Shown here: positions 1,912 through 13,322 of the stretch, in pieces
Layout: each line of letters begins with the position of its first letter
How positions within the stretch are numbered: position 1 is the stretch's first letter
Source: an uncultured Methanoregulaceae archaeon
GTDB lineage: Archaea > Halobacteriota > Methanomicrobia > Methanomicrobiales > Methanospirillaceae
DNA: 33,954 nucleotides
Direction of reading: 5' to 3'
Assembly: GCA_964530035.1 (NCBI GenBank)
Contig: CAZGXZ010000002.1
Location: forward strand, 1 to 33,954
Translations under genes and position numbers: made by a program
The notes under the pieces: generated by a model
Database searches by the model: none
What the model was told of the DNA's origin: nothing
The model's input: only the letters and a program-made list of their open reading frames with translations

Positions 1912-4131
1912 ATGAAAAAGGGAGGTGTCATCCTCGTGGAAGGTGTTGTCCAGGGGGTTGGATTCCGTCCTTTTGTCTATTCATCGGCCATGAAATTCAG
2001 GATGACCGGTTCGGTCAGAAATCTTGGGGGCACGGTTGAAATAACCGCTTTTGGAAACCGTTTTTCCGAATTTCTTGAAGAGATTAGAAGGGGGCCTCCG
2101 CTTGCCCGCATTGACCGTATAAAGGTACAGGAGATTGAAGGGACACCTCCTGCGTCCTTTACGATAGAACACAGTGAAAAAGGAGTCATTTCAGGGATGA
2201 TCCCCCCTGATGTCGCAATATGTGATGCCTGTCTTTCAGATATCTCGGACCCGGGTGGACGGTATGAAGGATACTGGGCTACCTCCTGTGTGAATTGTGG
2301 CCCCCGATACAGCATTATCAGGGGCATTCCGTACGACAGGGAGCGTACCTCCATGTCTCATTTCGTCATGTGCAGGGCTTGCGGGGTGGAATACCAGGAT
2401 CCCTGCTCACGCCGCCACCACGCCCAGACCATAGCCTGTGCCGCCTGTGGTCCCGCCCTGTCACTCCTTGATGCCCGGGGAAATCCTGTCATCTGCGGGG
2501 ACGTGATAATAAAAGCAGCCGAATTCCTCGATTCAGGATCCCTGGTGGCCATCAGGGGTATAGGCGGGTTTCACCTCTGCTGTACCGAGGAGGGCGCACC
2601 CGAGCTGAAGCGTCGTCTCGGGAGGACTGAACAGGCATTTGCCGTCCTGGTCAGGCCTGATGCAATTGACGGTATAGCAGACGTCAGCCCCGATGAGCGA
2701 AAGGACCTCACCGGCCCTGAAAGGCCTATTGTTGTCCTTGACAAGAGGGATCCTGATGCTCACCGTGCGATCAGCAACCTCCATACAATCGGTTGCATGC
2801 TCCCGTATACCGGGTTTCATCACCTCCTGTTCAGCCATCTGAAGGCCCCGTTTATCGTCATGACCAGTGCAAATGTCCCCGGAGACCCGATGATCACCTC
2901 TATAGACAAGGCTATGGAACGCCTTTCCGGGTCGATTGATTTCTTCCTCACCCACAACCGGCCGATCATCAACCGCTGCGACGATTCGGTCGTAAGAAAC
3001 GGTTTTATCATCCGCCTTTCACGGGGATATGCACCAAAAAGAACCAGGATCAACCTTGGAGACCGGTGCATCCTCGGTGTCGGCCCGGAGCTGAATGCCA
3101 ACATTACCATCTACCGGGATGGTTTCACGACCACGTCTCCTCATATCGGCAATGTCAGGAACCCGGCAACATTCGGTTACCTGAAAGAAACGATACAAAC
3201 GTTTACTGAAATCATGGGCGCGGAATATGACATTATTGCTCATGACCTCCACCCCCAGTTCCTTTCAACCAGGTATGCCCGCGATCTTGCCCGTGAACAT
3301 GGCGCCGTGCTTATCCCTGTCCAGCACCACAAAGCCCATATCGCAGCGGTCACCCGGGAACCGTGTATAGGTATCGCCATTGACGGGGTCGGGTACGGGG
3401 ATGACGGTTCTGTCTGGGGAGGAGAGGTCTTTGCGGGCCAGGTTCCTGATCTGGTCAGGGTGGCACACCTGGAACCGGTTCCCATGCCCGGCGGAGACCT
3501 GGCGACACGCTATCCGGAGAGAATGCTCTACGGGTTCCTGCCAGACGATCTGACCCGCGATCTCCTCATGGAAAGGGGCTGGACTGATCTGGCAATCGGT
3601 GCCATGGACCGGCAGATCACCCGCACCATCAACACGGTCATGACCAGCAGCACCGGGAGGGCGCTTGACGCAGCTTCCGCCCTCCTGGGGATCTGCACTG
3701 AAAAGACCTACGATGGTGAGCCGGCGATGAAACTTGAGTCTGCTGCAGCCTCAGGACATTGCGAGGCATGGGAGGTCCCGGTACATTGTGCCTCAGGTTC
3801 AACGGTCCTCATGACGCGGGAACTGATGCGACAGGCCAGGGAACGGTACCTCGAGGCTGCAGGAGACAGAAGAGCGTCATATGACATTGCTGCTTCCTTC
3901 CAGTACAACCTGGCGCGCGGGATTGCCAGACTGGCGGTTGATGCCGCAGGGACTGCCGGGCTTGATACCGTGGCGGTGAGCGGAGGGGTGGCCATCAACA
4001 GGGCCATACGACACACGATACAGGACGAAATCCAGGGGGCAGGCCTGACCTGCCTTTTCAACCGCGAGTACCCCCTCGGTGACGGCTGTATCTCGTTCGG
4101 GCAGTGCATTACCGCATCTTTTTACGGTTGA
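1912..4131 (+). CDS. hypF: [NiFe]-hydrogenase maturation carbamoyltransferase HypF
   Basis: Acylphosphatase motif GVVQGVGFRPFVY; zinc fingers CDAC, CVNCGPRY, CRAC, CAACGP; YrdC-like TSAN; Kae1-like HDLHPQF, QHHKAH, DGVGYGDDGSVWGGE, PLGDGCISFGQ. Confidence 0.97.
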   Translation: MKKGGVILVEGVVQGVGFRPFVYSSAMKFRMTGSVRNLGGTVEITAFGNRFSEFLEEIRRGPPLARIDRIKVQEIEGTPPASFTIEHSEKGVISGMIPPDVAICDACLSDISDPGGRYEGYWATSCVNCGPRYSIIRGIPYDRERTSMSHFVMCRACGVEYQDPCSRRHHAQTIACAACGPALSLLDARGNPVICGDVIIKAAEFLDSGSLVAIRGIGGFHLCCTEEGAPELKRRLGRTEQAFAVLVRPDAIDGIADVSPDERKDLTGPERPIVVLDKRDPDAHRAISNLHTIGCMLPYTGFHHLLFSHLKAPFIVMTSANVPGDPMITSIDKAMERLSGSIDFFLTHNRPIINRCDDSVVRNGFIIRLSRGYAPKRTRINLGDRCILGVGPELNANITIYRDGFTTTSPHIGNVRNPATFGYLKETIQTFTEIMGAEYDIIAHDLHPQFLSTRYARDLAREHGAVLIPVQHHKAHIAAVTREPCIGIAIDGVGYGDDGSVWGGEVFAGQVPDLVRVAHLEPVPMPGGDLATRYPERMLYGFLPDDLTRDLLMERGWTDLAIGAMDRQITRTINTVMTSSTGRALDAASALLGICTEKTYDGEPAMKLESAAASGHCEAWEVPVHCASGSTVLMTRELMRQARERYLEAAGDRRASYDIAASFQYNLARGIARLAVDAAGTAGLDTVAVSGGVAINRAIRHTIQDEIQGAGLTCLFNREYPLGDGCISFGQCITASFYG

Positions 4132-4137
4132 ACCTAT

Positions 4138-5736
4138 TCAAAGGCCTTTCTGCCATTCCCTCACCACGGCGATAAGGCCTTCAGGTCGTTCCTTCCGTAC
4201 GTCAACCTCCCCGAGGTAGACGGCCCCGGTTGTTCCGTCAAGACTGATCACATCTCCAGATGCAATCCTCGTCCCGGCTATGCTGCAACCCGACCCGTTG
4301 TCTTCAATTATCAGGTCCCGGCACCCGATGACACAGGCTTTCCCAAGGTGACGTGCCACAACCGCTGCATGGGAGGTCCGCGATCCCTCCCGGGTGAGGA
4401 TACCTCCCGACGCGATGATTCCCGCCATGTCATCAGGGGAAGCGGTTTCCCGGATCAGGATAACCGGGCCATCCCGAGAAGCCCTGACGGCCTCTTCTGA
4501 TGAGAAGACTGCCCGCCCGGATGCAATACCCGATGATGCAGGGATCCCGGTATATAAGGGATCGCCTGGTGAGCTGACCAGGTTTTCGAAGACGGTATCC
4601 AGGTCAATATCCCGAAGGTGGAGGAGGGCATCGTCGGAGGTGATAATTCCCTCGCGGCACAGGTCAACCGCGATCCGCAGAGCTGCAAGAGGGGCACGCT
4701 TTCCCGCACGCGCCTGGAGTATGAACAGGCGTCCTTCCTGGATGGTGAACTCGATGTCCTGCATATCATGAAAGACGGTCTCAAGCCTCCGGCCTATCTG
4801 GTCCAGCTCTTCTGCACTGCCGGGCATGGTTTCACTCAAAGGGAGGAATGACGCTGTTGCCCGTCCCGATACAACATCCTCCCCCTGACCGCCATACACA
4901 AAATCAATGACCGGATAGGGGGCTCCGTCCGACGGGTCGCGGGTGAAAAGGACACCGGAGCCTGAACGGGGACCGGCATTGCCAAAGACCATCGCCTGCA
5001 CAGTAACGGCGGTCCCTTTCATACCGGAAAGGGGGGCAACGCCCCGGTATGCCACGGCACGCGGTGCGTTCCAAGACGCGAGAACCGTTTCGGTCGCCAT
5101 GATGATCTGTTCCTGCGGGTCTGCCGGGAAGGTATCACCCGTTTTAACGCGGTAGATTCGTTCCAGGGTTTCTGCGAGGCCGGAAAGAGCCATCGCATCA
5201 AGATCCCGGATATCCTCTGCACCTGCTGATCTGCAGGCATTCTCCCATGCGTCGTGATAGGATGCGGCATCGTGGGAATGTACCACCGTTCCAAACTGTT
5301 CGATGAGACGGCAGTACGAATTCCATGCAAGACGCGGGTTTCCATACATTACGGTGAAGCCCCGGATAGTCTCCCGAGATAGCCCCACATTTAATACCGT
5401 TTCCATCATTCCGGGCATAGACGTCGCCGCCCCGGATCTGACTGATACGAGGAGGGGGCGCCTCCTGCTGCCGAACTGGCACCCGGTCACCTCCTCGAGG
5501 AAACGAATCCCCTCATGGAGCAGTCCTGGTATATCCGGTGGGATTACCTTCCCTGAACTGAAGTACTGCTCGCATATGGAGACGTTCAGGGCAAACCCAG
5601 GGGGGACAGGGATTCCTATGGCCGCCATACGGGCGAGGTGGGCGGCTTTGGCACCAAACCATCCAGGTTCAGGTATCCCGGGAACACCCGGGCCGAAGGT
5701 CATGATCCGCGGTCCTTCCTGTTCCATGGGGATCAC
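4138..5736 (-). CDS. Pyruvate,phosphate dikinase-like protein with nucleotide-binding and phospho-His domains only (no C-terminal pyruvate/PEP domain), 532 aa
   Basis: GAKAAHL, PVPPGF, LLVSVRSGAATSMPGMMETVLNVGL, VQAMVFGN, GEDVVSG, DMQDIEFTIQEGRLFILQAR, and His motif GSRTSHAAVVAR. Ends after SLDGTTGAVYLGE...VREW. GTG start overlaps the upstream stop (GTGA). Confidence 0.9.
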   Translation of the reverse strand: MIPMEQEGPRIMTFGPGVPGIPEPGWFGAKAAHLARMAAIGIPVPPGFALNVSICEQYFSSGKVIPPDIPGLLHEGIRFLEEVTGCQFGSRRRPLLVSVRSGAATSMPGMMETVLNVGLSRETIRGFTVMYGNPRLAWNSYCRLIEQFGTVVHSHDAASYHDAWENACRSAGAEDIRDLDAMALSGLAETLERIYRVKTGDTFPADPQEQIIMATETVLASWNAPRAVAYRGVAPLSGMKGTAVTVQAMVFGNAGPRSGSGVLFTRDPSDGAPYPVIDFVYGGQGEDVVSGRATASFLPLSETMPGSAEELDQIGRRLETVFHDMQDIEFTIQEGRLFILQARAGKRAPLAALRIAVDLCREGIITSDDALLHLRDIDLDTVFENLVSSPGDPLYTGIPASSGIASGRAVFSSEEAVRASRDGPVILIRETASPDDMAGIIASGGILTREGSRTSHAAVVARHLGKACVIGCRDLIIEDNGSGCSIAGTRIASGDVISLDGTTGAVYLGEVDVRKERPEGLIAVVREWQKGL

Positions 5737-7685
5737 CGGTTCAGTTGTTCAAGCAGGGAGTCCCGGAGTATAAAGCCTGCTTTCATAAGGGCATTCGTTG
5801 ACTCCTCTATCATCCTCCCACACTCGAATGCCGCCCGGAACTCCTTGTAATCAGTGCTTTCCATGAAGGTAAGGTTGGACATCTTCCGCAGCCCTTCATC
5901 CGCATTATGTTCAAGTGACGCAACCCTGTCGACCGCCTCAAGGAACTCCTGCAGGTCTTCACGGCTGCCCCTGGCCTGGACCTCCTCGGCTGCATAGAGT
6001 GCCTTGAGAAACTCCCGTGACGCACTCAGGCTGTCCTCTGCAAGGAGGGTTAGTGATTTCTGGATCTTTACCGAGCGGACATGCCCCCCGACAAGTGTTG
6101 TGAAAAAGGCAGCCTCCTCAAGGGCGTCGATGGCATCATCCATCATGATGATCAGCCCTGCATAGAACTCCGCCGTCTCAACCCTGTGGGAGAGGGCCCT
6201 GACCTGCGAAACAATGAAATCGGCGTCGCTCTCCCAGCCCTTCACCCTGGCAGAAAGGTCGGGGCGCATCTCCCCGGCCGCACCACGTTCGATCCAGAGG
6301 AGGGTATCCCGCACGGCTGTGGCGACCTCGACCGTCAGGGTGGCATGGACCTGGCATCTCCCGATGAGGTCTTCATGGGCTGATCGGAAGGACCCAAGGA
6401 GCTCTGCCTTGATCTCATCGGAAATGAGCAGTCGTGACAGCTTCCTGCTCAGGCCCTCAGAGGAGAGGGCGAGGACCCTGCAGATAAAGGAGAAGGTCTT
6501 CTCACGTCCAAGGATGGAATGAAGCGGTTCTCCATACTTCAGGGGCATGTGGGCAGTCAGCTCAAGCGCGTCATACACCAGCCGCTCTCCTCCGAGCTCG
6601 AGAAAGGCCATGTGCCCTACTTCCTTATCGGCAGCCCATTTGAGAGCGGCAATGGCATCACGGTTTGGGAGGAAGTTTCTCAGGCGTTTCCTTGCCCTGT
6701 TCCAGTCGATCAGAAAGACAAGCCTGGAACCAAGGTAGGTAAGAAAGCGGGACAGTTCTAGAGGATTTGCCGCGTTGTACCGGCCTACGGACAGGTGGAA
6801 CAGGTCAGTATTCAGTTTACTCCCTCCCTGCCGCGAACGGGTCTCCTGCCATGTCACCCCCTGAGACTCGAACAGTCCCTGGAAGAACACGAGGCGGTTC
6901 AGATGGACATCACTGTATGTAATCGTTACTTCTCTTTCGCTGATGTTTATGACAATGACATGTGCATCCGTCATCCCGATGTCATTCTGCAGGACGAGGT
7001 GGTCTCCGCTCCGTGTCGCCGTCGTGGTCAGTCCGGGGTGGGCAAACCTCAGGGGGGCGGTACGGTTGACTCCTGTCATGAATGCCCTGACCAGGACGCG
7101 GTCATCTTCAGAGAGCATATAGGCCCGTGCCCCGTCGATGACCTCTGTCGATAACCCGGCCTGGACCGTGTTGAGGGCCTTGTGGAGGTCCATCACGAGG
7201 AGGTGGAGGCTGTCACCTGCCCGGGAGTCCCCTGATGTCACGGCACGGATGGCAGAACCGCTGATAACACAGTCCTCTGCCTTGGGCAACAAGGTATAGA
7301 GGCTATCCTTGCGACGTTCAAATCCTGCAGCGCTTTCCGGGTCTGCAATAGATACCGGACGGATCATGGCCTCAAGCGAGTCGCCTATCCTCATGACGAT
7401 CTCGTTGGACATCGGGATGAAAATGGTGGTCTGGCTGACGGCCTTTGACCCTCCAACGACATGGTCCAGCCGGGAATCGCGTATCCCCGAGGCTTCACGC
7501 TCAGTCCTGAGCGGAGGATACCTTCCTTCAGGGTTCGACGCTCTCTGGGCGGCTGTCTGAAGGAGGGAGAAATAATACTTGATCCGGTCGTTGGCTGCCA
7601 GGGCTTCATTGACCAGTGCCGGAAGGAGGAGTTCCGCGGCACCAAGTTCCTCGACAATGCCGGTCTTCGCGGTCACGTTCTTCAC
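5733..7685 (-). CDS. Large protein with an uncharacterised N-terminal region and a C-terminal DUF47/PhoU-like (phosphate transport regulator) helical domain
   Basis: The C-terminal ~210 aa carry paired ExxAD / DxxDxxE motifs (WESDAD, MDDAIDALEEAA, LEHNAD) typical of DUF47/PhoU bundles. Start is GTG 7685 or GTG 7676. Confidence 0.7.
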   Translation of the reverse strand: MKNVTAKTGIVEELGAAELLLPALVNEALAANDRIKYYFSLLQTAAQRASNPEGRYPPLRTEREASGIRDSRLDHVVGGSKAVSQTTIFIPMSNEIVMRIGDSLEAMIRPVSIADPESAAGFERRKDSLYTLLPKAEDCVISGSAIRAVTSGDSRAGDSLHLLVMDLHKALNTVQAGLSTEVIDGARAYMLSEDDRVLVRAFMTGVNRTAPLRFAHPGLTTTATRSGDHLVLQNDIGMTDAHVIVINISEREVTITYSDVHLNRLVFFQGLFESQGVTWQETRSRQGGSKLNTDLFHLSVGRYNAANPLELSRFLTYLGSRLVFLIDWNRARKRLRNFLPNRDAIAALKWAADKEVGHMAFLELGGERLVYDALELTAHMPLKYGEPLHSILGREKTFSFICRVLALSSEGLSRKLSRLLISDEIKAELLGSFRSAHEDLIGRCQVHATLTVEVATAVRDTLLWIERGAAGEMRPDLSARVKGWESDADFIVSQVRALSHRVETAEFYAGLIIMMDDAIDALEEAAFFTTLVGGHVRSVKIQKSLTLLAEDSLSASREFLKALYAAEEVQARGSREDLQEFLEAVDRVASLEHNADEGLRKMSNLTFMESTDYKEFRAAFECGRMIEESTNALMKAGFILRDSLLEQLNR

Positions 7686-7704
7686 GTGAAGGAATGACAG
7701 GGGG

Positions 7705-7712
7705 TGTATAAA
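7705..7712 (-). promoter_or_regulatory. Putative TATA box for the DUF47-like/PPDK-like operon
   Basis: TTTATACA on the minus strand, 20-27 nt upstream of GTG 7685, consistent with a leaderless or short-leader archaeal transcript. Confidence 0.5.
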
Positions 7713-7916: not shown

Positions 7917-9356
7917 TCAGAGGAAAGGAATAAGGGCGGATATTCCGGATTTTCCGATCTTATGGAGCCAGATCCTGCCCATGAACGTTATCTGGTTGTC
8001 TCTCACGAGGACTTCCCTGTTGAAATTCTCGTACCCGTCCATCTTCAGCGTGACAAGATACCGTCCCGGCTTCAGGTTCATGATCGTGGCTGGTGTCTGG
8101 CCGCTCAGGACATTATTGACATACACCCCTGCTCCCACAGGGACCGACCCGATTGAGATCCCCCCGTTACCCGCAGGGAGTGGGGAAGGGGTCGGCGTGG
8201 GAGTGGAGGAGGTCGGGACCACCGATGTAGGCACAACGGTGGTCGGGACCACCGTTGTCGGGCTCACGGTAGTCGTTCCCGTCGGGGTAGGGGTAGGGGT
8301 AGGTGAAGTTGTTGTTGGCGTCGGGGTGGGGGCCGATGTCTGTGTCGGCTGTGGCGATGACCCCTTCACCAGTGCAACATTACCGAGGTAGACCGTCTGC
8401 CCCTGGGATATTGTTATTGTGCGTGAAAAGGTCTGGTACCCCTCCTTCCATACCTGTACAAGGTGGGTCCCGACAGGGACGCCCTGGCCTATGAAGGTCG
8501 TGGTCCCTACTTTTACCCCGTCAAGATACACATTCGCCGGTGCCGGGCTCGATCCCACTGCAAAGCCGCCGGTCGCTACCGGGGGTACTGGCGTCGTGGG
8601 AGGAACGGTAGTAGGGACCGTGGTGGGTGTCGCTGTTGGTGTACTGGTTGTTGTTGCGGTAGGTGTGGGGGTCGCAGTGGTGGGCGTTGTCGTCACGGTT
8701 GTCGTCACCGTCGGCGTGGGTGTCGGCGTATCGGTGGCAGTTGCCGTGGGTGTCGGCGTACTGGTCGGGGTCGGAGTCGGGGTCGTCACCGTCGGCGTCG
8801 GTGTTGGCGTATCGGTGGCCGTAGCTGTGGGTGTCGGCGTACTGGTCGGGGTCGGAGTCGGGGTCGTCACCGTCGGCGTGGGTGTGACTCCGCCAACCGA
8901 TATGCTGCCGCCGGAGAATGTCACCGGTATGTCCGCTCCGTTCGTTGCCTTCAGCTCCCTGACGGTAACGCCGATCGAGGTGGATCCAGCTGACAGCCCC
9001 TGGACCTTCAGGGTGACGAGCGGGACATTGGTTGTGGGTGGCGGCTGGGTCGTATCAGCCAGGGCAGTAACGTTGACAGTACCGCTCGGGACCGCCGGGA
9101 TCGAATGGAATACCGGCCAGGAGGGGTAGGTCACCTGGGTGAATGTGGCAACCGAAGGATTGGCAACAGCTATCTGCAAGTCAAAATCAGCTATGCCTGG
9201 TGAAGCATCACTCAGGATCAAGGTTGTCGTGGCCTCACCGCCAGGGGCGACGATTATGTCGCCCATGGTGATCTGGGCTGCCGACGCAGTCGCCGAAAGG
9301 GCAACCGCCGAAAGCAGTACGATAATAAGTACGAGGAATGGTGGTTTCTGGATCAT
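7917..9356 (-). CDS. Secreted surface protein: signal peptide, cohesin-like domain, Pro/Thr linker, PEGA, Pro/Thr linker, PEGA (479 aa)
   Basis: Start moved to ATG 9356 (MIQKPPFLVLIIVLLSAVALSATASAA) after a GGAAGGAG RBS. PEGA motifs SSPAPANVYLDG...GTHLVQVWKEGY and SVPVGAGVYVNN...GRYLVTLKMDGY. The N-terminal all-beta domain resembles methanogen cohesins. Confidence 0.85.
   Translation of the reverse strand: MIQKPPFLVLIIVLLSAVALSATASAAQITMGDIIVAPGGEATTTLILSDASPGIADFDLQIAVANPSVATFTQVTYPSWPVFHSIPAVPSGTVNVTALADTTQPPPTTNVPLVTLKVQGLSAGSTSIGVTVRELKATNGADIPVTFSGGSISVGGVTPTPTVTTPTPTPTSTPTPTATATDTPTPTPTVTTPTPTPTSTPTPTATATDTPTPTPTVTTTVTTTPTTATPTPTATTTSTPTATPTTVPTTVPPTTPVPPVATGGFAVGSSPAPANVYLDGVKVGTTTFIGQGVPVGTHLVQVWKEGYQTFSRTITISQGQTVYLGNVALVKGSSPQPTQTSAPTPTPTTTSPTPTPTPTGTTTVSPTTVVPTTVVPTSVVPTSSTPTPTPSPLPAGNGGISIGSVPVGAGVYVNNVLSGQTPATIMNLKPGRYLVTLKMDGYENFNREVLVRDNQITFMGRIWLHKIGKSGISALIPFL
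8701..8885. repeat. 81-bp coding tandem repeat (~2.3 copies) in the Pro/Thr stalk
   Basis: GTCGTCACCGTCGGCGT recurs at 8701, 8782 and 8863; the unit encodes PTVTTPTPTPTSTPTPTATATDTPTPT. Confidence 0.9.
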
Positions 9357-9570
9357 ACGTCTCCTTCCTTCCATCTGCCCGGGGACCAGCGTGATCGGGC
9401 AAAACGGAAAATACGATGTAATACTTCTTTTGTTTTTTCTCCCATAATAAAGGTTTCCCCAAAATGTGTAAAATAACGGCCAGTTTTGTGGATCGAAGGC
9501 TGGGAATGCCCTGTTGATGAAGCGTGCAATATGTACGGGATCTTTCAATAGCCCAAAAAATGAGGCGGTA

Positions 9571-12500
9571 TCAGGGCCAGACCCCGAGATAATGGTTATA
9601 ATGGAGATAGACATCGTATGCAGTGATAAAACCGTCCCCATTATAGTCGATCATACCCACCGGCCAGTTTGCCTGGATGGTCGGGAGGTAGTTGAAGAAC
9701 AGGTAGACGTCGTACAGCTCAAACTTCCCGTTCCCGTCCATGTCATCGATCAGCCCGTCACCATCGGTATCCCAGGGTATGTTCGTCCCGGGAGCTCCCG
9801 TCGTGAAAGAGGCAAGCGGGGGATAATTGTAGAACTCGAACTGGACCGGGACACGGGTCAGGGTATACGCCACGCCGTTATCCCCCCGGACTTCCGTCCG
9901 CGAACCTGGTGCATATTCCATGTCAAGTATCACGGTAGCGACGGTACCGGTTACTGGGCTGGAATTTGTCACATTAATCGAACCGAACGGCACTCTCCCA
10001 TAGCCATAGCTGATGTAATCGTACCCGTCAATTCCGGTGAAATTGACATATTCTGACGGGAGGGGTGGAACGTACGAGAAGTACGTAGGTCCGTAGTACG
10101 GCGGGAACCAGACGGGAGCATTGATCTGGTCGTATACTGACGATCCGAACTGGCCGACCCCCGAAGTTGTAAACCATGAGTAGACATTATAGGATGCAAC
10201 CCCTGCATCCGCCTGGGAGAGGTGGAACGTTCCCATGAGCGGTCTTCCCGCAACCGTTCTGTTCGTTGTGGTGTTGAAGAACAGGGTCGCGTTCATGTCA
10301 ACGTTCCTCGGGGTGAAGAACGCCGAAATGTTCGTCGAGTTCGAACAGCCACAGGCGTTCGTCACCGTCAGGTTGACCCAGTAGGGTGTCCCGATCGTGT
10401 AGAACGAACTGTTGATATTGACCTGCACGCTCTGGCCGCTCCGGCTCAGCGATCCGGAATCGGTCGCAATAACCCAGTCCCACGCGACATTGGTCCCGGG
10501 GGTGTTGTCCGTAAAGGTAAGGGTCTGACCAAGGACCGGGGTCAGGTTGGACGCTGTGAAGTTCGGGACGGGTGAGGAACAGACGGTAACTGGCCAGGTT
10601 GCTGTCGATGACCCGTCGGAGTTCGTGACCGTAAGCCTGACATTGTATGTCCTCGTGATGTTCGGGAACGTATGGACAATGAATGACTGGTAAGTTGCGG
10701 TTGTAAAGGTCGTCGTGTTCCCGTCATCGAAGTTCCACGACCAGTAGGTCGGCAGTCCTCCGGAAGAGAGGTCGGTGAAGTTCACGATGACCGGCATGCA
10801 CCCTCCGGTGGAGTTCGCCGTCATTTGAGCGGTCGGTGCCGCAGTTCCCACCTTGAGGATGAAGGCGTCCCTCGGGTTGCCGCCGTATGTCTGCTGGAAC
10901 CCGCCGCGTGCTCCTCCGGGGAACATGCCAAAGAAGTCGTAGCTCTCGGTGAACCCGGTGATATACGCCGACCCTTCACTGTCAAGGGCTATTGCATTGG
11001 CCTCGTCGTTGCAGCAGCCTCCGAATGGTGTGGCAAAGGTGTAGAATGTCCCGGTCGGGTTGATCTTGACCAAAAATCCATCGGTGAGGTTGACCTTCCA
11101 TATCCAGGGGTTTCTCCATCCCTGGCAGAACTCGTTCGAGTTGGTGGCGCCGGTGACATACGAATAGCCGCTTCCGTCCACTGCGATGCCGTTGCCGCTG
11201 TCACCCTGGATTCCTCCGAGGTAGGTGGAATACGCCCCTCCGCCTGACAACGACCCGTCACAGTTGAACTTTGTCACAAAGGCGTCGGGGATGGAGACAT
11301 CGTGGTTGCACTTTGTCGGCTGGAAGACCCCTGCCGTAATCGGGAAATCAACTGATGTCGTCTTCCCGGTGACATATGGTTCGCCCTGCGGGTTGACATC
11401 GATCGCCTGTCCCCAGTCCTCGGCATATCCTCCAAGGTAGGTGGAATAGATCGGGAACCCGGTTGTGTTCATCTTGGTGATGAAGGCATCGGTGAACCCA
11501 TGGATCATCGGCTGGTACTGATTCTTGAGCGGGTAGTCGCCAGACTTGGTGAACCCCGTGATGTAGGCGTTCGTCTCGAAGTCAAGGGCAATTGCCCTTC
11601 CCTGGTCATCGCCCGTCCCGCCGAGGTATGTTGAATAGACAAGGCTGCTCCCGGTAGGGTCGATCTTGGTGAGGAAAGCGTCCTTGAACTGGGATGGGGA
11701 CGGGTCGTTGCCCTTCAGCTGCTGGAACGCCTGGCCGACCGGGTAGGTCGGGAAATTGTTCGAGTAGGTGTCACCCGTGACATAGGCATTGCCGCCAGAA
11801 TCAACCTTTATCCCGAGGCCCTGGTCATGATCGGCACCTCCGAGGAATGTCGAATAGCTGTCACCGTAGGAGGGGGGGATCGAGTTGATCTGGCCTGAAG
11901 CATTGAGTTTTAGGATAAACGCGTCGTATCCTCCCCGGAGAGTTCCCTGGTAGGGGTTGCCCGAGATAGGGAAGTTCAGCGAGGCTGTTTTACCGGTTAC
12001 ATAGGGTGACCCGGTGCTGTCCACGGCAATCGCAAGGCCCTGGTCATCGTTGTTACCGCCGTAGTAGGTAGAGTAGACGATGTCAGCCCAGGTACCGTTG
12101 TAACCGATCTTGGTGATGAAGGCGTCGCGGAGACCGTTGCAGGTGCTCCCCGAACAGCCACCGATAGATGTCCAGTTCCTCGTCGGGAAATTCGAAGACT
12201 GGGTATACCCGGTCAGGTAGGCATTGCCGTTTACGTCCACGGCTATACCGGTACCCGAGTCCTCGTTATCGCCGCCCAGGTACGACCCATAGACGAGGGA
12301 GGGGTCGATGACGAGCTCACGGGATGTATCATATTGACCCACTAGGAACCCTACCCGGTTCGCGTCAAGTATGACATATGAAGAAGATACCGGGACCCGG
12401 GTATCTCCGGTCACCTGGTAGCTGAGCGGGGCCTGCTCGGTGAGGCTCCCGGACGGGGTCGTGACCGTGAGTGAGCCGTCATGGTTCAGCCTGAGTGAGC

Positions 12501-13002
12501 TGATCCCCTCGTATTTCATCACTATTCCCGTTGGAGAGACACCCGGGGCCACGATGAACTCACGCTTCAGGACTCCGTCGGTTCCCTTGTATACCTGGTC
12601 GATCCCGGGAAGGACGTCCCTGTAGACAATTGCGCCGTACGTCGGGACATCCAGGTACCATTTTGACGGGTCGTCGCCGATAATGAAGTTCGCGACACCC
12701 GGCAGGAGGCCCTCGCCTTCGACAACGGATGGGTTCTGGCCATCGACGCCAAAGGTAAAAGCCGCCGGCCCATCGACCCCTTCACTCACGAGATAGGCCT
12801 TGTCAGGGGCAAAAACAATCGAATACCCTGCCCCGCCGGCGGTAAAGGCGACCCCCGGGTCTGCTTGCCCAATGTTCTTGATAAAACTCAGCGGTACTTT
12901 CGAAAGACTCACTGAAGGCTGTTCATCGGCGGATACAAAGGTTCCCGCAAAGAACAGGAGAAGTACAACTGCCACGAGTGGCATACACGCTCTGCCATTC
13001 AT
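9571..13002 (-). CDS. Large secreted surface protein: signal peptide, N-terminal domain, seven SBBP beta-propeller repeats, two PKD domains, cohesin-like domain, C-terminal dockerin-like module
   Basis: PLSFIKNIGQ N-terminus; seven YSTYLGG..D.G..IAVD..G..YVTG.T.S..FP-type repeats; PKD motif VNFTDLSSGGLPTYWSWNFDDG; paired Ca-loops DMDGNGKFELYD and DYNGDGFITAYD. ATG 13002 is preceded by GGTGA. Confidence 0.88.
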   Translation of the reverse strand: MNGRACMPLVAVVLLLFFAGTFVSADEQPSVSLSKVPLSFIKNIGQADPGVAFTAGGAGYSIVFAPDKAYLVSEGVDGPAAFTFGVDGQNPSVVEGEGLLPGVANFIIGDDPSKWYLDVPTYGAIVYRDVLPGIDQVYKGTDGVLKREFIVAPGVSPTGIVMKYEGISSLRLNHDGSLTVTTPSGSLTEQAPLSYQVTGDTRVPVSSSYVILDANRVGFLVGQYDTSRELVIDPSLVYGSYLGGDNEDSGTGIAVDVNGNAYLTGYTQSSNFPTRNWTSIGGCSGSTCNGLRDAFITKIGYNGTWADIVYSTYYGGNNDDQGLAIAVDSTGSPYVTGKTASLNFPISGNPYQGTLRGGYDAFILKLNASGQINSIPPSYGDSYSTFLGGADHDQGLGIKVDSGGNAYVTGDTYSNNFPTYPVGQAFQQLKGNDPSPSQFKDAFLTKIDPTGSSLVYSTYLGGTGDDQGRAIALDFETNAYITGFTKSGDYPLKNQYQPMIHGFTDAFITKMNTTGFPIYSTYLGGYAEDWGQAIDVNPQGEPYVTGKTTSVDFPITAGVFQPTKCNHDVSIPDAFVTKFNCDGSLSGGGAYSTYLGGIQGDSGNGIAVDGSGYSYVTGATNSNEFCQGWRNPWIWKVNLTDGFLVKINPTGTFYTFATPFGGCCNDEANAIALDSEGSAYITGFTESYDFFGMFPGGARGGFQQTYGGNPRDAFILKVGTAAPTAQMTANSTGGCMPVIVNFTDLSSGGLPTYWSWNFDDGNTTTFTTATYQSFIVHTFPNITRTYNVRLTVTNSDGSSTATWPVTVCSSPVPNFTASNLTPVLGQTLTFTDNTPGTNVAWDWVIATDSGSLSRSGQSVQVNINSSFYTIGTPYWVNLTVTNACGCSNSTNISAFFTPRNVDMNATLFFNTTTNRTVAGRPLMGTFHLSQADAGVASYNVYSWFTTSGVGQFGSSVYDQINAPVWFPPYYGPTYFSYVPPLPSEYVNFTGIDGYDYISYGYGRVPFGSINVTNSSPVTGTVATVILDMEYAPGSRTEVRGDNGVAYTLTRVPVQFEFYNYPPLASFTTGAPGTNIPWDTDGDGLIDDMDGNGKFELYDVYLFFNYLPTIQANWPVGMIDYNGDGFITAYDVYLHYNHYLGVWP

Positions 13003-13322
13003 CACCAATCACCACGAAGTCACATCCGGCCGGCCGGCATTGCACCAGCTGCCGGGCGGCAGGGAAGGGGGAGGACATGATATGTGCATGCCTCAAAGCA
13101 CCGGACACGCTCGTGTGTCCATCAATTACCCTGATTTCATACTACCGGCTGGCCGCGGGCGCCATGAAGGATCCGGATATGCTATTTGCACAACCTCTCT
13201 TTATCATAGTATATGAACGTTGCTCCAATTGATTTGTATTGATGCGAACCGTCCGAAAAAACACCGGTTCTTCCCTTTTTATAATGATTCGCCCTCAACA
13301 CCGGCGGCCCCCTGGCGGATGG

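Follow-up and report, generated by a model that had tools for sequence, protein, structure and literature searches.

In a 33,954-nucleotide stretch of DNA from an uncultured Methanoregulaceae archaeon (contig CAZGXZ010000002.1, hereafter the window), two adjacent genes on the reverse strand encode a 650-residue protein with a DUF47/PhoU-type tail, which we call the partner, and a 532-residue homologue of pyruvate, phosphate dikinase (PPDK) without the pyruvate-binding barrel. We find that the two genes are one old, conserved and sometimes fused unit. We propose, with slightly less than even confidence, that their products form a two-subunit dikinase, in which the partner replaces the barrel and acts on polyphosphate (polyP) or phosphate.

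4138..5736, reverse strand: barrel-less PPDK homologue, 532 aa as called (529 aa from ATG 5727)
5733..7685, reverse strand: partner gene, 650 aa as called (647 aa if the start is GTG 7676)

The two genes form one conserved unit

Scanning GTDB genomes with the partner yielded 441 related stretches, the best 80 of which are the 80 loci described here. Close homologues belong to Methanomicrobiales, as judged by source names. In 74 of the 80 loci, the short dikinase gene directly follows the partner gene on the same strand, and the other six loci are cut by a contig edge. The 71 complete dikinase copies all end between -2 and +32 residues from the end of this protein, and all are barrel-less. The 86 long homologues are, without exception, partner-dikinase fusions of 1148–1243 aa, and those carrying a taxon name are all from Solirubrobacteraceae.

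The same pairing is seen in a sample of 201 Methanomicrobiales genomes: 35 carry the partner and 33 the short dikinase, which in every case adjoins a partner gene. The two genomes with a partner but no short dikinase are G167, where the contig ends, and G180, where the gene is lacking. The latter (locus L090, G180:C19:12645-14582) is the one clear exception; its assembly is 95% complete, and the short dikinase was found neither in the 3.9 kb downstream of the partner nor elsewhere in it. Across a bacterial phylum sample of 301 genomes, the partner occurs in three (one of them the centre genome), each time adjoining a short dikinase, and all three genomes carry a full-length-frame PPDK elsewhere. 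The original prediction had treated the two genes as a coupled unit and had named two findings that would speak against it, namely a failure of the genes to co-occur and a full-length PPDK at this locus in close relatives. Neither is what we observe, and the unit is supported.

In a quick tree of 74 rows, the partnered short proteins (32 rows) fall on one side of a branch with a support (SH-aLRT) of 97. In a careful tree of 29 rows, they (11 rows) again fall on one side of a branch, supported at 100/100. Both trees place them apart from the full PPDKs of Methanomicrobiales. Because the complete copies all end alike and the short proteins occupy this separate branch, the sequences indicate that the truncation is old rather than recent. 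At loci L057 and L058 and in genomes G161 and G200, the assembly breaks one or the other of the two genes into two frames.

The short protein retains the PPDK motor

Two domains were located in the short dikinase:

4702..5679, reverse strand: ATP-grasp nucleotide/phosphate-binding domain, about residues 20–345, aligned to 1kbl (K30, R100, Q247, G261, D287, E329, Q341, R343)
4192..4569, reverse strand: swivelling phospho-histidine domain, about residues 390–515 (PF00391, E 1.8e-19), with the H456 codon at 4369–4371

Residues 27–528 align to the PPDK of Clostridium symbiosum (1kbl) with an E-value of 1.4e-118. The match stops at residue 526 of 873 in 1kbl, where the barrel begins, and the protein spans positions 18–511 of the 865-position PPDK model, as expected from the earlier statement that it ends at the start of the barrel. 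The ATP-grasp motifs and the Thr-Ser-His motif of the swivelling domain, described there as intact, are present. Residues K30, R100, Q247, G261, D287, E329, Q341, R343, T454 and H456 are invariant in all 52 aligned short proteins, and position 327 is Asp in 36 and Glu in 16 of them. We assume that these residues have the catalytic and phosphate-binding roles known from PPDK work, G261, E329 and R343 presumably forming the site for inorganic phosphate (Pi).

We found no full PPDK, no free pyruvate barrel and no PPDK regulatory protein (PF03618) in the genome of the window, which is 86% complete; the sole barrel detected is that of a PpsA-type gene on contig C131. The search for a complete ppdK or ppsA called for in the original prediction thus returned the latter type, and a separately encoded pyruvate domain, which would have argued for ordinary PPDK activity, was not recovered. 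Elsewhere, at least five genomes with the pair (G146, G187, G204, G544 and G758) also have a full-length-frame PPDK, and the pair is therefore not a stand-in for PPDK.

Several unusual PPDK genes were noticed. Two full-length-frame PPDK genes lie approximately 3 kb apart in G187 (C1:348038-352791) and likewise in G074 (C5:35770-40417). At L120 (3727-6754, genome G201), a PPDK front half carries an unknown tail of about 270 aa in place of the barrel, and the open reading frame (ORF) that follows contains a C-x5-R motif, which we take to resemble that of protein tyrosine phosphatases.

The partner has a conserved middle domain and a DUF47 tail

The AlphaFold2 model of the partner (pLDDT 91) shows three parts and a connector:

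7140..7646, reverse strand: four-helix bundle, residues 14–182, from AlphaFold2 models and an hhalign match to the Rv1126c-like C-terminal domain
6681..7139, reverse strand: alpha+beta domain, residues 183–335, the most conserved part and candidate active site
6390..6680, reverse strand: helical connector with G357-H358, residues 336–432, from the AlphaFold2 model and the alignment
5736..6389, reverse strand: DUF47/PhoU-type bundle, residues 433–650, from profile, fold and acidic motifs

Conservation is concentrated in the middle domain, where 41 positions are kept in at least 90% of 109 sequences, compared with 8 in the DUF47 tail. The conserved residues include H216, N234, D235, H242, D259, H261, R264 and the segment D327-W-N329-x-A-R332-K333, and these may together form one pocket. 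This domain belongs to no known family, no Pfam family being common to more than 4 of 70 members. Its pattern of conservation resembles that of an active site more than that of a mere sensor.

The fold of the middle domain was always compared within residues 12–432, and the domain may yet have a known fold. Foldseek returned no match for this segment at E ≤ 0.001 in PDB or BFVD, and VIA-align returned generic bundles with Z up to 9.6. The best match of the middle domain is the C-terminal domain of T4 MotA (Z 8.4, rmsd 3.4, 105 aligned residues), which lies within the range of common arrangements. In the ESM Atlas, one unnamed match at 0.81 was found for residues 1–440 and none for residues 14–182.

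The N-terminal bundle carries conserved N32/K36/[ST]40/Q43, R125 and the motif D158-S-x-H161-x4-D166-L-H168. Its similarity to the P1 domain of CheA (Z 7.1–7.5) is no better than that to unrelated bundles (Z up to 9.6), and none of the 70 members has a Pfam match to a histidine phosphotransfer (HPt) domain.

The DUF47/PhoU assignment of the tail in the original prediction is confirmed by profile and fold, although the Pfam score of this protein (15.8 bits) falls below the gathering threshold of 24.4; several homologues exceed it, such as P0123 with 34.6. The tail matches 3l39 by profile (E 1.4e-7) and by fold (Z 23.8, rmsd 2.9, 205 aligned residues), followed by 2iiu (Z 20.6). Acidic residues are kept throughout the 109 sequences (E485 in 104, D489 in 104, D520 in 102, E523 in 103, E592 in 98, D596 in 100 and E627 in 94). 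Thus both halves of the tail retain the E-x3-D motif (E485/D489 and E592/D596, 98–104 of 109), which is also visible in the alignment with 3l39. A complex prediction with partner residues 12–650 and dikinase residues 341–532, a segment that excludes the ATP-grasp domain, gave no verdict (score 0.00, with its controls not folded).

The N-terminal bundle resembles a domain encoded beside VadK-type dikinases

VadK (Rv1127c) of Mycobacterium tuberculosis is a barrel-less PPDK whose main text reports autophosphorylation of His422 with ATP and Mg (PMC13400623). The protein gained 80 Da, and the buffer listed there contains Tris, NaCl and glycerol, with no Pi listed. On this analogy, a strict Pi dependence is doubtful, which goes against the original prediction that the phospho-histidine forms only when Pi is present. 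In the same text, co-expression with the operon partner Rv1126c improved the solubility of VadK, and a wash with 2 M NaCl separated the two; Rv1126c is named there only in this role, and archaea, DUF47 and PhoU are not mentioned (PMC13400623). VadK is proposed to act by binding proteins (PMC13400623). In the literature searched, which leaves out most subscription journals, we found no description of the partner-dikinase pair. The earlier statement that no functional description exists therefore stands for the pair, but a barrel-less PPDK as such has been described in VadK.

VadK-type loci were chosen by their NF004531 score and gene order, and mycobacterial orthologues (L149, L150), rather than the M. 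tuberculosis sequences, were compared. In both loci, a 201-aa winged-helix gene lies directly downstream of the VadK-type gene; from the gene order and its length, we take it to be the Rv1126c orthologue. Its C-terminal domain carries the motifs N-x3-K-x3-T-x2-Q and D-S-Y-H-x4-E-L-H, which have counterparts of equal spacing in the partner, N32-x3-K36-x3-[ST]40-x2-Q43 and D158-S-L-H161-x4-D166-L-H168.

A profile was built from 20 diverse C-terminal domains out of 23 loci, with one unpublished and two partial rows left out; none of our conclusions draws on genomes marked as unpublished. By hhalign, it matched partner residues 14–182 with a probability of 79.6, an E-value of 1.5e-5 and a score of 36.3. 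The controls scored lower, with 9.9–17.1 for five other partner windows, 11.3 for the reversed profile, at most 18.9 for 30 block shuffles and at most 17.4 for 84 windows from other neighbourhood clusters. In local mode, the alignment spans 70 columns, the last of which fall in the second motif, and the first motif is aligned only globally (probability 38). A narrow mycobacterial alignment gave a probability of only 5.6 (E 0.0068), and the reverse direction gave 0.9 in the wrong register. With a single-profile hidden Markov model, 12 of 270 partner proteins scored above 5 bits, and 11 of these matches were located in the first 200 residues; the reversed model gave one. Taken together, the N-terminal bundle of the partner is probably homologous to the Rv1126c-like C-terminal domain encoded beside VadK-type dikinases. 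As for the dikinases themselves, a branch with 84/84 support joins the short proteins and four VadK-type rows in the 29-row tree, and the 74-row quick tree leaves this unresolved; a single origin with VadK is neither shown nor rejected by the sequences.

Other loci show related arrangements. At L189 (5151-7474, genome G404), an Rv1126c-like gene stands beside a protein of the PpsA/RPH lineage (RPH, rifampin phosphotransferase) that has ATP-grasp and His domains and no acceptor domain, making it another barrel-less dikinase, independent of the first, whose neighbour is of the same type. A short PPDK-like protein and an Rv1126c-like domain share one frame at L192 (3742-5916, G259) and L193 (5178-7373, G481), and the usual His motif pattern is absent from the L193 copy. 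At L151 (5077-8764, G325), three co-oriented genes encode an Rv1126c-like protein, a short PPDK and an RPH-like protein of 563 aa, the last having acceptor and His domains and no ATP-grasp match. RPH-like halves similar to the latter lie near an Rv1126c-like gene at L186 and L190. The barrel-less PPDK-like gene of L122 (G205:C11) is highly diverged and belongs to neither the DUF47-partnered nor the VadK group. The model NF004531 (534 positions, named 'pyruvate, phosphate dikinase') describes the VadK-type short proteins; its cut-off is also passed by the front halves of full PPDKs (204 of 251 genomes), and the model cannot separate the two.

The pair occurs in a phosphate and polyphosphate context

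Methanogens make polyP and carry homologues of PPK1, PPK2 and PPX, as stated in an earlier study (PMC6864096). In the 201 Methanomicrobiales genomes, PPK1 is present in 121, comprising all 35 genomes with the partner and 86 of the 166 without it. In families f2–f5, where PPK1 is rare, it occurs in 7 of 7 partner genomes and 13 of 84 others; in family f1, in 27 of 27 and 44 of 52, respectively. Of the 11 genomes of genus g2, three have no PPK1, and the same three have no partner.

In 8 of the 35 genomes (six genera), ppk1 and the pair are no more than 11 kb apart; by rough arithmetic, approximately 0.4 would be expected. We examined seven of these eight loci and G031, picked as positive-looking, with Pfam on 43 of 105 ORFs. 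L199 and L200 show the order ppk1-ppx-partner-dikinase, and L197 the order pit-DUF47-ppk2-small ORF-partner-dikinase, in each case all on one strand. Genes for CHAD proteins, phoU and pst recur in these regions, and pit, pst and phoU genes lie near the pair in L197, L198, L200 and L202. Bacterial neighbours include PPX with CYTH-CHAD (L022) and PPK2 (L028, L070). This gene context backs the earlier link of the pair to phosphate; polyP genes are at least as prominent in it as those of Pi transport.

The wider flanks were surveyed with Pfam on 148 of 154 ORFs from 40 loci and with tblastn on all 80; the 80 loci overlap with the 201-genome sample, and the counts are not additive. Neither the 42 homologues scanned nor the 86 long matches include a partner fused to a polyP enzyme. 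In the neighbourhoods examined, no biosynthetic or pyrophosphate (PPi)-using gene and no methylcitrate gene recurs beside the pair. A 115-aa DUF498 gene recurs near the pair in archaea (L016, L017, L021, L058, L197 and L202), and in the present genome lies on contig C76. The phosphate locus of this genome (L203, G000:C18:1-18000) contains DUF47, pit, ppk1, CHAD, ruvC-ruvA-ruvB, metallophosphoesterase and ppx genes. RuvABC is mainly bacterial.

A two-subunit dikinase and its alternatives

In swivel dikinases, the His domain connects two active sites (PMC5371819), and RPH offers a precedent for the swapping of acceptor domains among them (PMC4844700). In the mechanism that we favour, the short protein would serve as the motor: its ATP-grasp domain would take up phosphoryl groups from ATP, and one of them would be carried on His456. 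The partner would take the place of the pyruvate barrel in trans, or in cis in the fusions. Its N-terminal bundle may engage the dikinase, its His/Asp-rich middle domain would provide the second active site, and the DUF47 bundle may bind Pi or a metal and gate the enzyme. The acceptor would come from phosphate storage, with polyP as the leading candidate:

ATP + Pi + polyP(n) = AMP + PPi + polyP(n+1)

Since the number of anhydride bonds is kept, the reaction could also run backwards, in which case AMP and PPi from biosynthesis would be turned into ATP at the cost of stored polyP. That the acceptor is polyP itself is a narrower and distinctly more doubtful claim than the two-subunit arrangement; the remainder of our confidence lies with Pi or some other compound of the phosphate pool. 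In this proposal, the existence of a complex, a catalytic role of the middle domain, the identity of the acceptor and the direction of the reaction are all inferred.

Assigning the second site to the partner is the simplest solution, because the motor has lost that site and has a near-obligate partner to which it is fused in one lineage. We favour a dikinase acting on a phosphate store because the most conserved part of the partner looks catalytic and because the pair stands in a polyP context. Several points weigh against this proposal. Family f6 has PPK1 in 29 of 30 genomes and the partner in none of the 30, so PPK1 does not imply the pair, and related genomes are not independent, so the enrichment of PPK1 is overstated. 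A clear polyP enzyme lies in the 6-kb flanks of only 6 of the 80 loci, three of them bacterial. Most neighbourhoods are variable, no third gene accompanies the pair across lineages, and the ppk1, CHAD, ppx and pit genes of this genome are on another contig than the pair. The fold matches of the middle domain are uninformative, and the best of them, MotA, is a DNA-binding domain. A winged-helix protein also has the N-terminal bundle, which suits a regulatory relay equally well. Finally, VadK, the closest tested relative, is reported in its main text as a regulator without a small-molecule acceptor (PMC13400623).

Such a relay, close to the idea of the original prediction, is the main alternative; it is possible, though we do not think it probable. 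The phosphoryl group would pass from His456 to H161 or H168 of an HPt-like partner bundle, and the phosphorylation state would steer the effect of the DUF47 tail on a Pi transporter or on PPK/PPX, thereby reporting ATP, Pi or PPi status. Both histidines are conserved (H161 in 104 and H168 in 103 of 109 sequences). The Rv1126c-like domain has equivalents of both and is attached to a winged helix instead of an enzyme. Of 22 loci with that domain, 12 have a PPDK-like gene no more than 1.5 kb away, and in two of the loci the domain is fused to such a gene; at L189 it accompanies a barrel-less dikinase of the separate PpsA/RPH lineage. The autophosphorylation of VadK and its proposed action by protein binding (PMC13400623) fit a relay, as do the pit, pst and phoU genes near the pair. 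However, a relay leaves the top conservation of the middle domain unexplained, and the match of the bundle to the CheA P1 fold does not stand out from unrelated bundles. No PPDK-type gene is nearby in 7 of 15 wider Rv1126c-like loci, and the main text on VadK does not identify its phospho-acceptor (PMC13400623).

The pair might instead phosphorylate an organic small molecule that has no part in phosphate storage, comparably to RPH or PigC, in which case the DUF47 tail would act as scaffold. The mostly variable neighbourhoods, the patchy distribution of the family (3 of 301 in the bacterial sample) and the frequency of acceptor swapping in the superfamily are in keeping with this idea. We nevertheless regard it as improbable: no model of RPH or PigC matches the partner, biosynthetic genes do not recur in its neighbourhood, and the only functional theme recurring across lineages is Pi and polyP.

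Slightly more improbable is a PPi-generating or PPi-consuming module, in which the partner would discharge His456-P to Pi or water, giving either ATP + 2 Pi = AMP + 2 PPi or hydrolysis of ATP to AMP + PPi. In its favour, the presumed Pi-site residues G261, E329 and R343 are invariant in the 52 short proteins and the acidic motifs of the DUF47 tail are kept. Yet such a module needs no polyP genes, which are enriched; its hydrolytic form would presumably waste ATP in energy-limited methanogens; and it has no recurring PPi-using neighbour. A split or decayed PPDK, arising by recent truncation or with a separately encoded barrel, is largely refuted by the uniform ends of the 71 complete neighbours, the 100/100 branch apart from methanomicrobial full PPDKs, the invariant catalytic residues and the PpsA-type nature of the sole barrel found, even though a barrel gene may be missing from an 86%-complete assembly.

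The two-subunit dikinase may also be one member of a wider, unrecognised class, a speculative extension that we consider rather doubtful. The pair would then be a reversible polyphosphate, phosphate dikinase that combines a PPDK motor with a new catalytic fold, and barrel-less dikinases of both the PPDK and the PpsA type would dock on a shared two-histidine bundle with different outputs, namely an enzyme plus DUF47 here and a DNA-binding winged helix in actinobacteria.

Start sites, promoter and neighbouring genes

Two short elements were located at the gene starts:

5733..5737, reverse strand: GGTGA, containing the partner stop codon; inferred ribosome-binding site for ATG 5727
7707..7712, reverse strand: TTTATA hexamer, TATA-like, 31–36 nt before the likely start at 7676; a candidate promoter element only

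Both ORFs exist as described in the original prediction, and the convergent hypF gene ends at 4131, 6 bp before 4138. The GTGA overlap at 5733–5736 is present, but it is probably not the start of the dikinase. GGTGA (5737–5733) lies 5 nt before ATG 5727, which is probably the true start with GGTGA as its ribosome-binding site. Among 22 archaeal junctions compared, the same layout is found only in the closest relative (L001), and most others have a spacer with GGAG or GGTG before the dikinase start. The partner probably starts at GTG 7676, because its relatives begin at query residue 4. The TATA-like box suggested earlier is present and plausibly placed, but TTTATA occurs at chance level (6 in the window, 4.3 expected), and no conserved box was seen by eye upstream of the partner gene in relatives. 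A sigma-70 scan at the operon start gave no match, and the sigma-70 consensus is unsuited to an archaeal host.

Databases label the partner 'DUF47 family protein' or 'phosphate transport regulator' and the short dikinase 'PEP/pyruvate-binding domain-containing protein' (PEP, phosphoenolpyruvate). Upstream of the pair, at 7917–13008 on the reverse strand, are two large surface-protein genes. One encodes a PEGA domain and long Thr/Pro repeats, and its true start probably lies some 96 codons further in, at a stretch resembling a signal peptide; the other encodes DUF7948/SBBP/PKD domains and ends in DxDGDG repeats.

Significance and comparison with known systems

VadK is the only barrel-less PPDK studied, and its phosphorylation target is not known. 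The pair is a second, widespread barrel-less PPDK lineage with a fixed, sometimes fused partner. If the partner is an acceptor subunit, it would hold a new phosphotransfer active site and possibly a new means of recycling AMP and PPi with stored polyP in energy-limited methanogens. The shared two-histidine bundle yields a specific prediction for how barrel-less dikinases in general reach their targets. Were the wider class real, it would mean a new route from polyP to ATP in methanogens and would suggest the missing cognate partner of VadK.

With PPDK (EC 2.7.9.1; TIGR01828; 1kbl, 5jvn), the short dikinase shares the ATP-grasp and central His domains and their catalytic residues. In contrast, it has no PEP/pyruvate barrel (PF02896), and it scores 507 bits on TIGR01828, where the cut-off is 843.

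RPH, PigC/RedH and glucan water dikinase combine the same two modules with a different acceptor domain (PMC4844700). Their acceptor domain is in the same chain, whereas here the candidate acceptor is mostly a separate gene product. In these enzymes, water takes the gamma-phosphate, and RPH yields AMP + Pi; the motor here is of the PPDK type. The short dikinase has no acceptor insert between its ATP-grasp and His domains, and the partner matches none of the RPH and PigC models of NCBIfam.

The DUF47/PhoU_div regulators (PF01865; 3l39, 2iiu) share the six-helix fold and acidic motifs with the last 218 residues of the partner. Ordinary members are stand-alone proteins of approximately 210 aa encoded beside pit, as on contig C18 of this genome, whereas the bundle of the partner is preceded by 430 residues of other domains.

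VadK (NF004531/PRK05878) comes closest, since both systems consist of PPDK-derived ATP-grasp and His domains without a barrel and a co-encoded partner. This dikinase, however, scores 422 bits on NF004531 (cut-off 456), compared with 913 for the L149 protein. It keeps an ATP-grasp segment that is absent from VadK-type proteins, has TSH where they have ASH, with the Thr two residues before the His, and does not have their tail of about 70 aa. The adjoining gene is not a winged helix of the Rv1126c type, its likeness being confined to the N-terminal bundle; it encodes a His/Asp domain and DUF47 instead. The genomic context is Pi and polyP here and the methylcitrate cycle there. The pair thus resembles PPDK, RPH and VadK in its working and is a member of none of them by their defining features.

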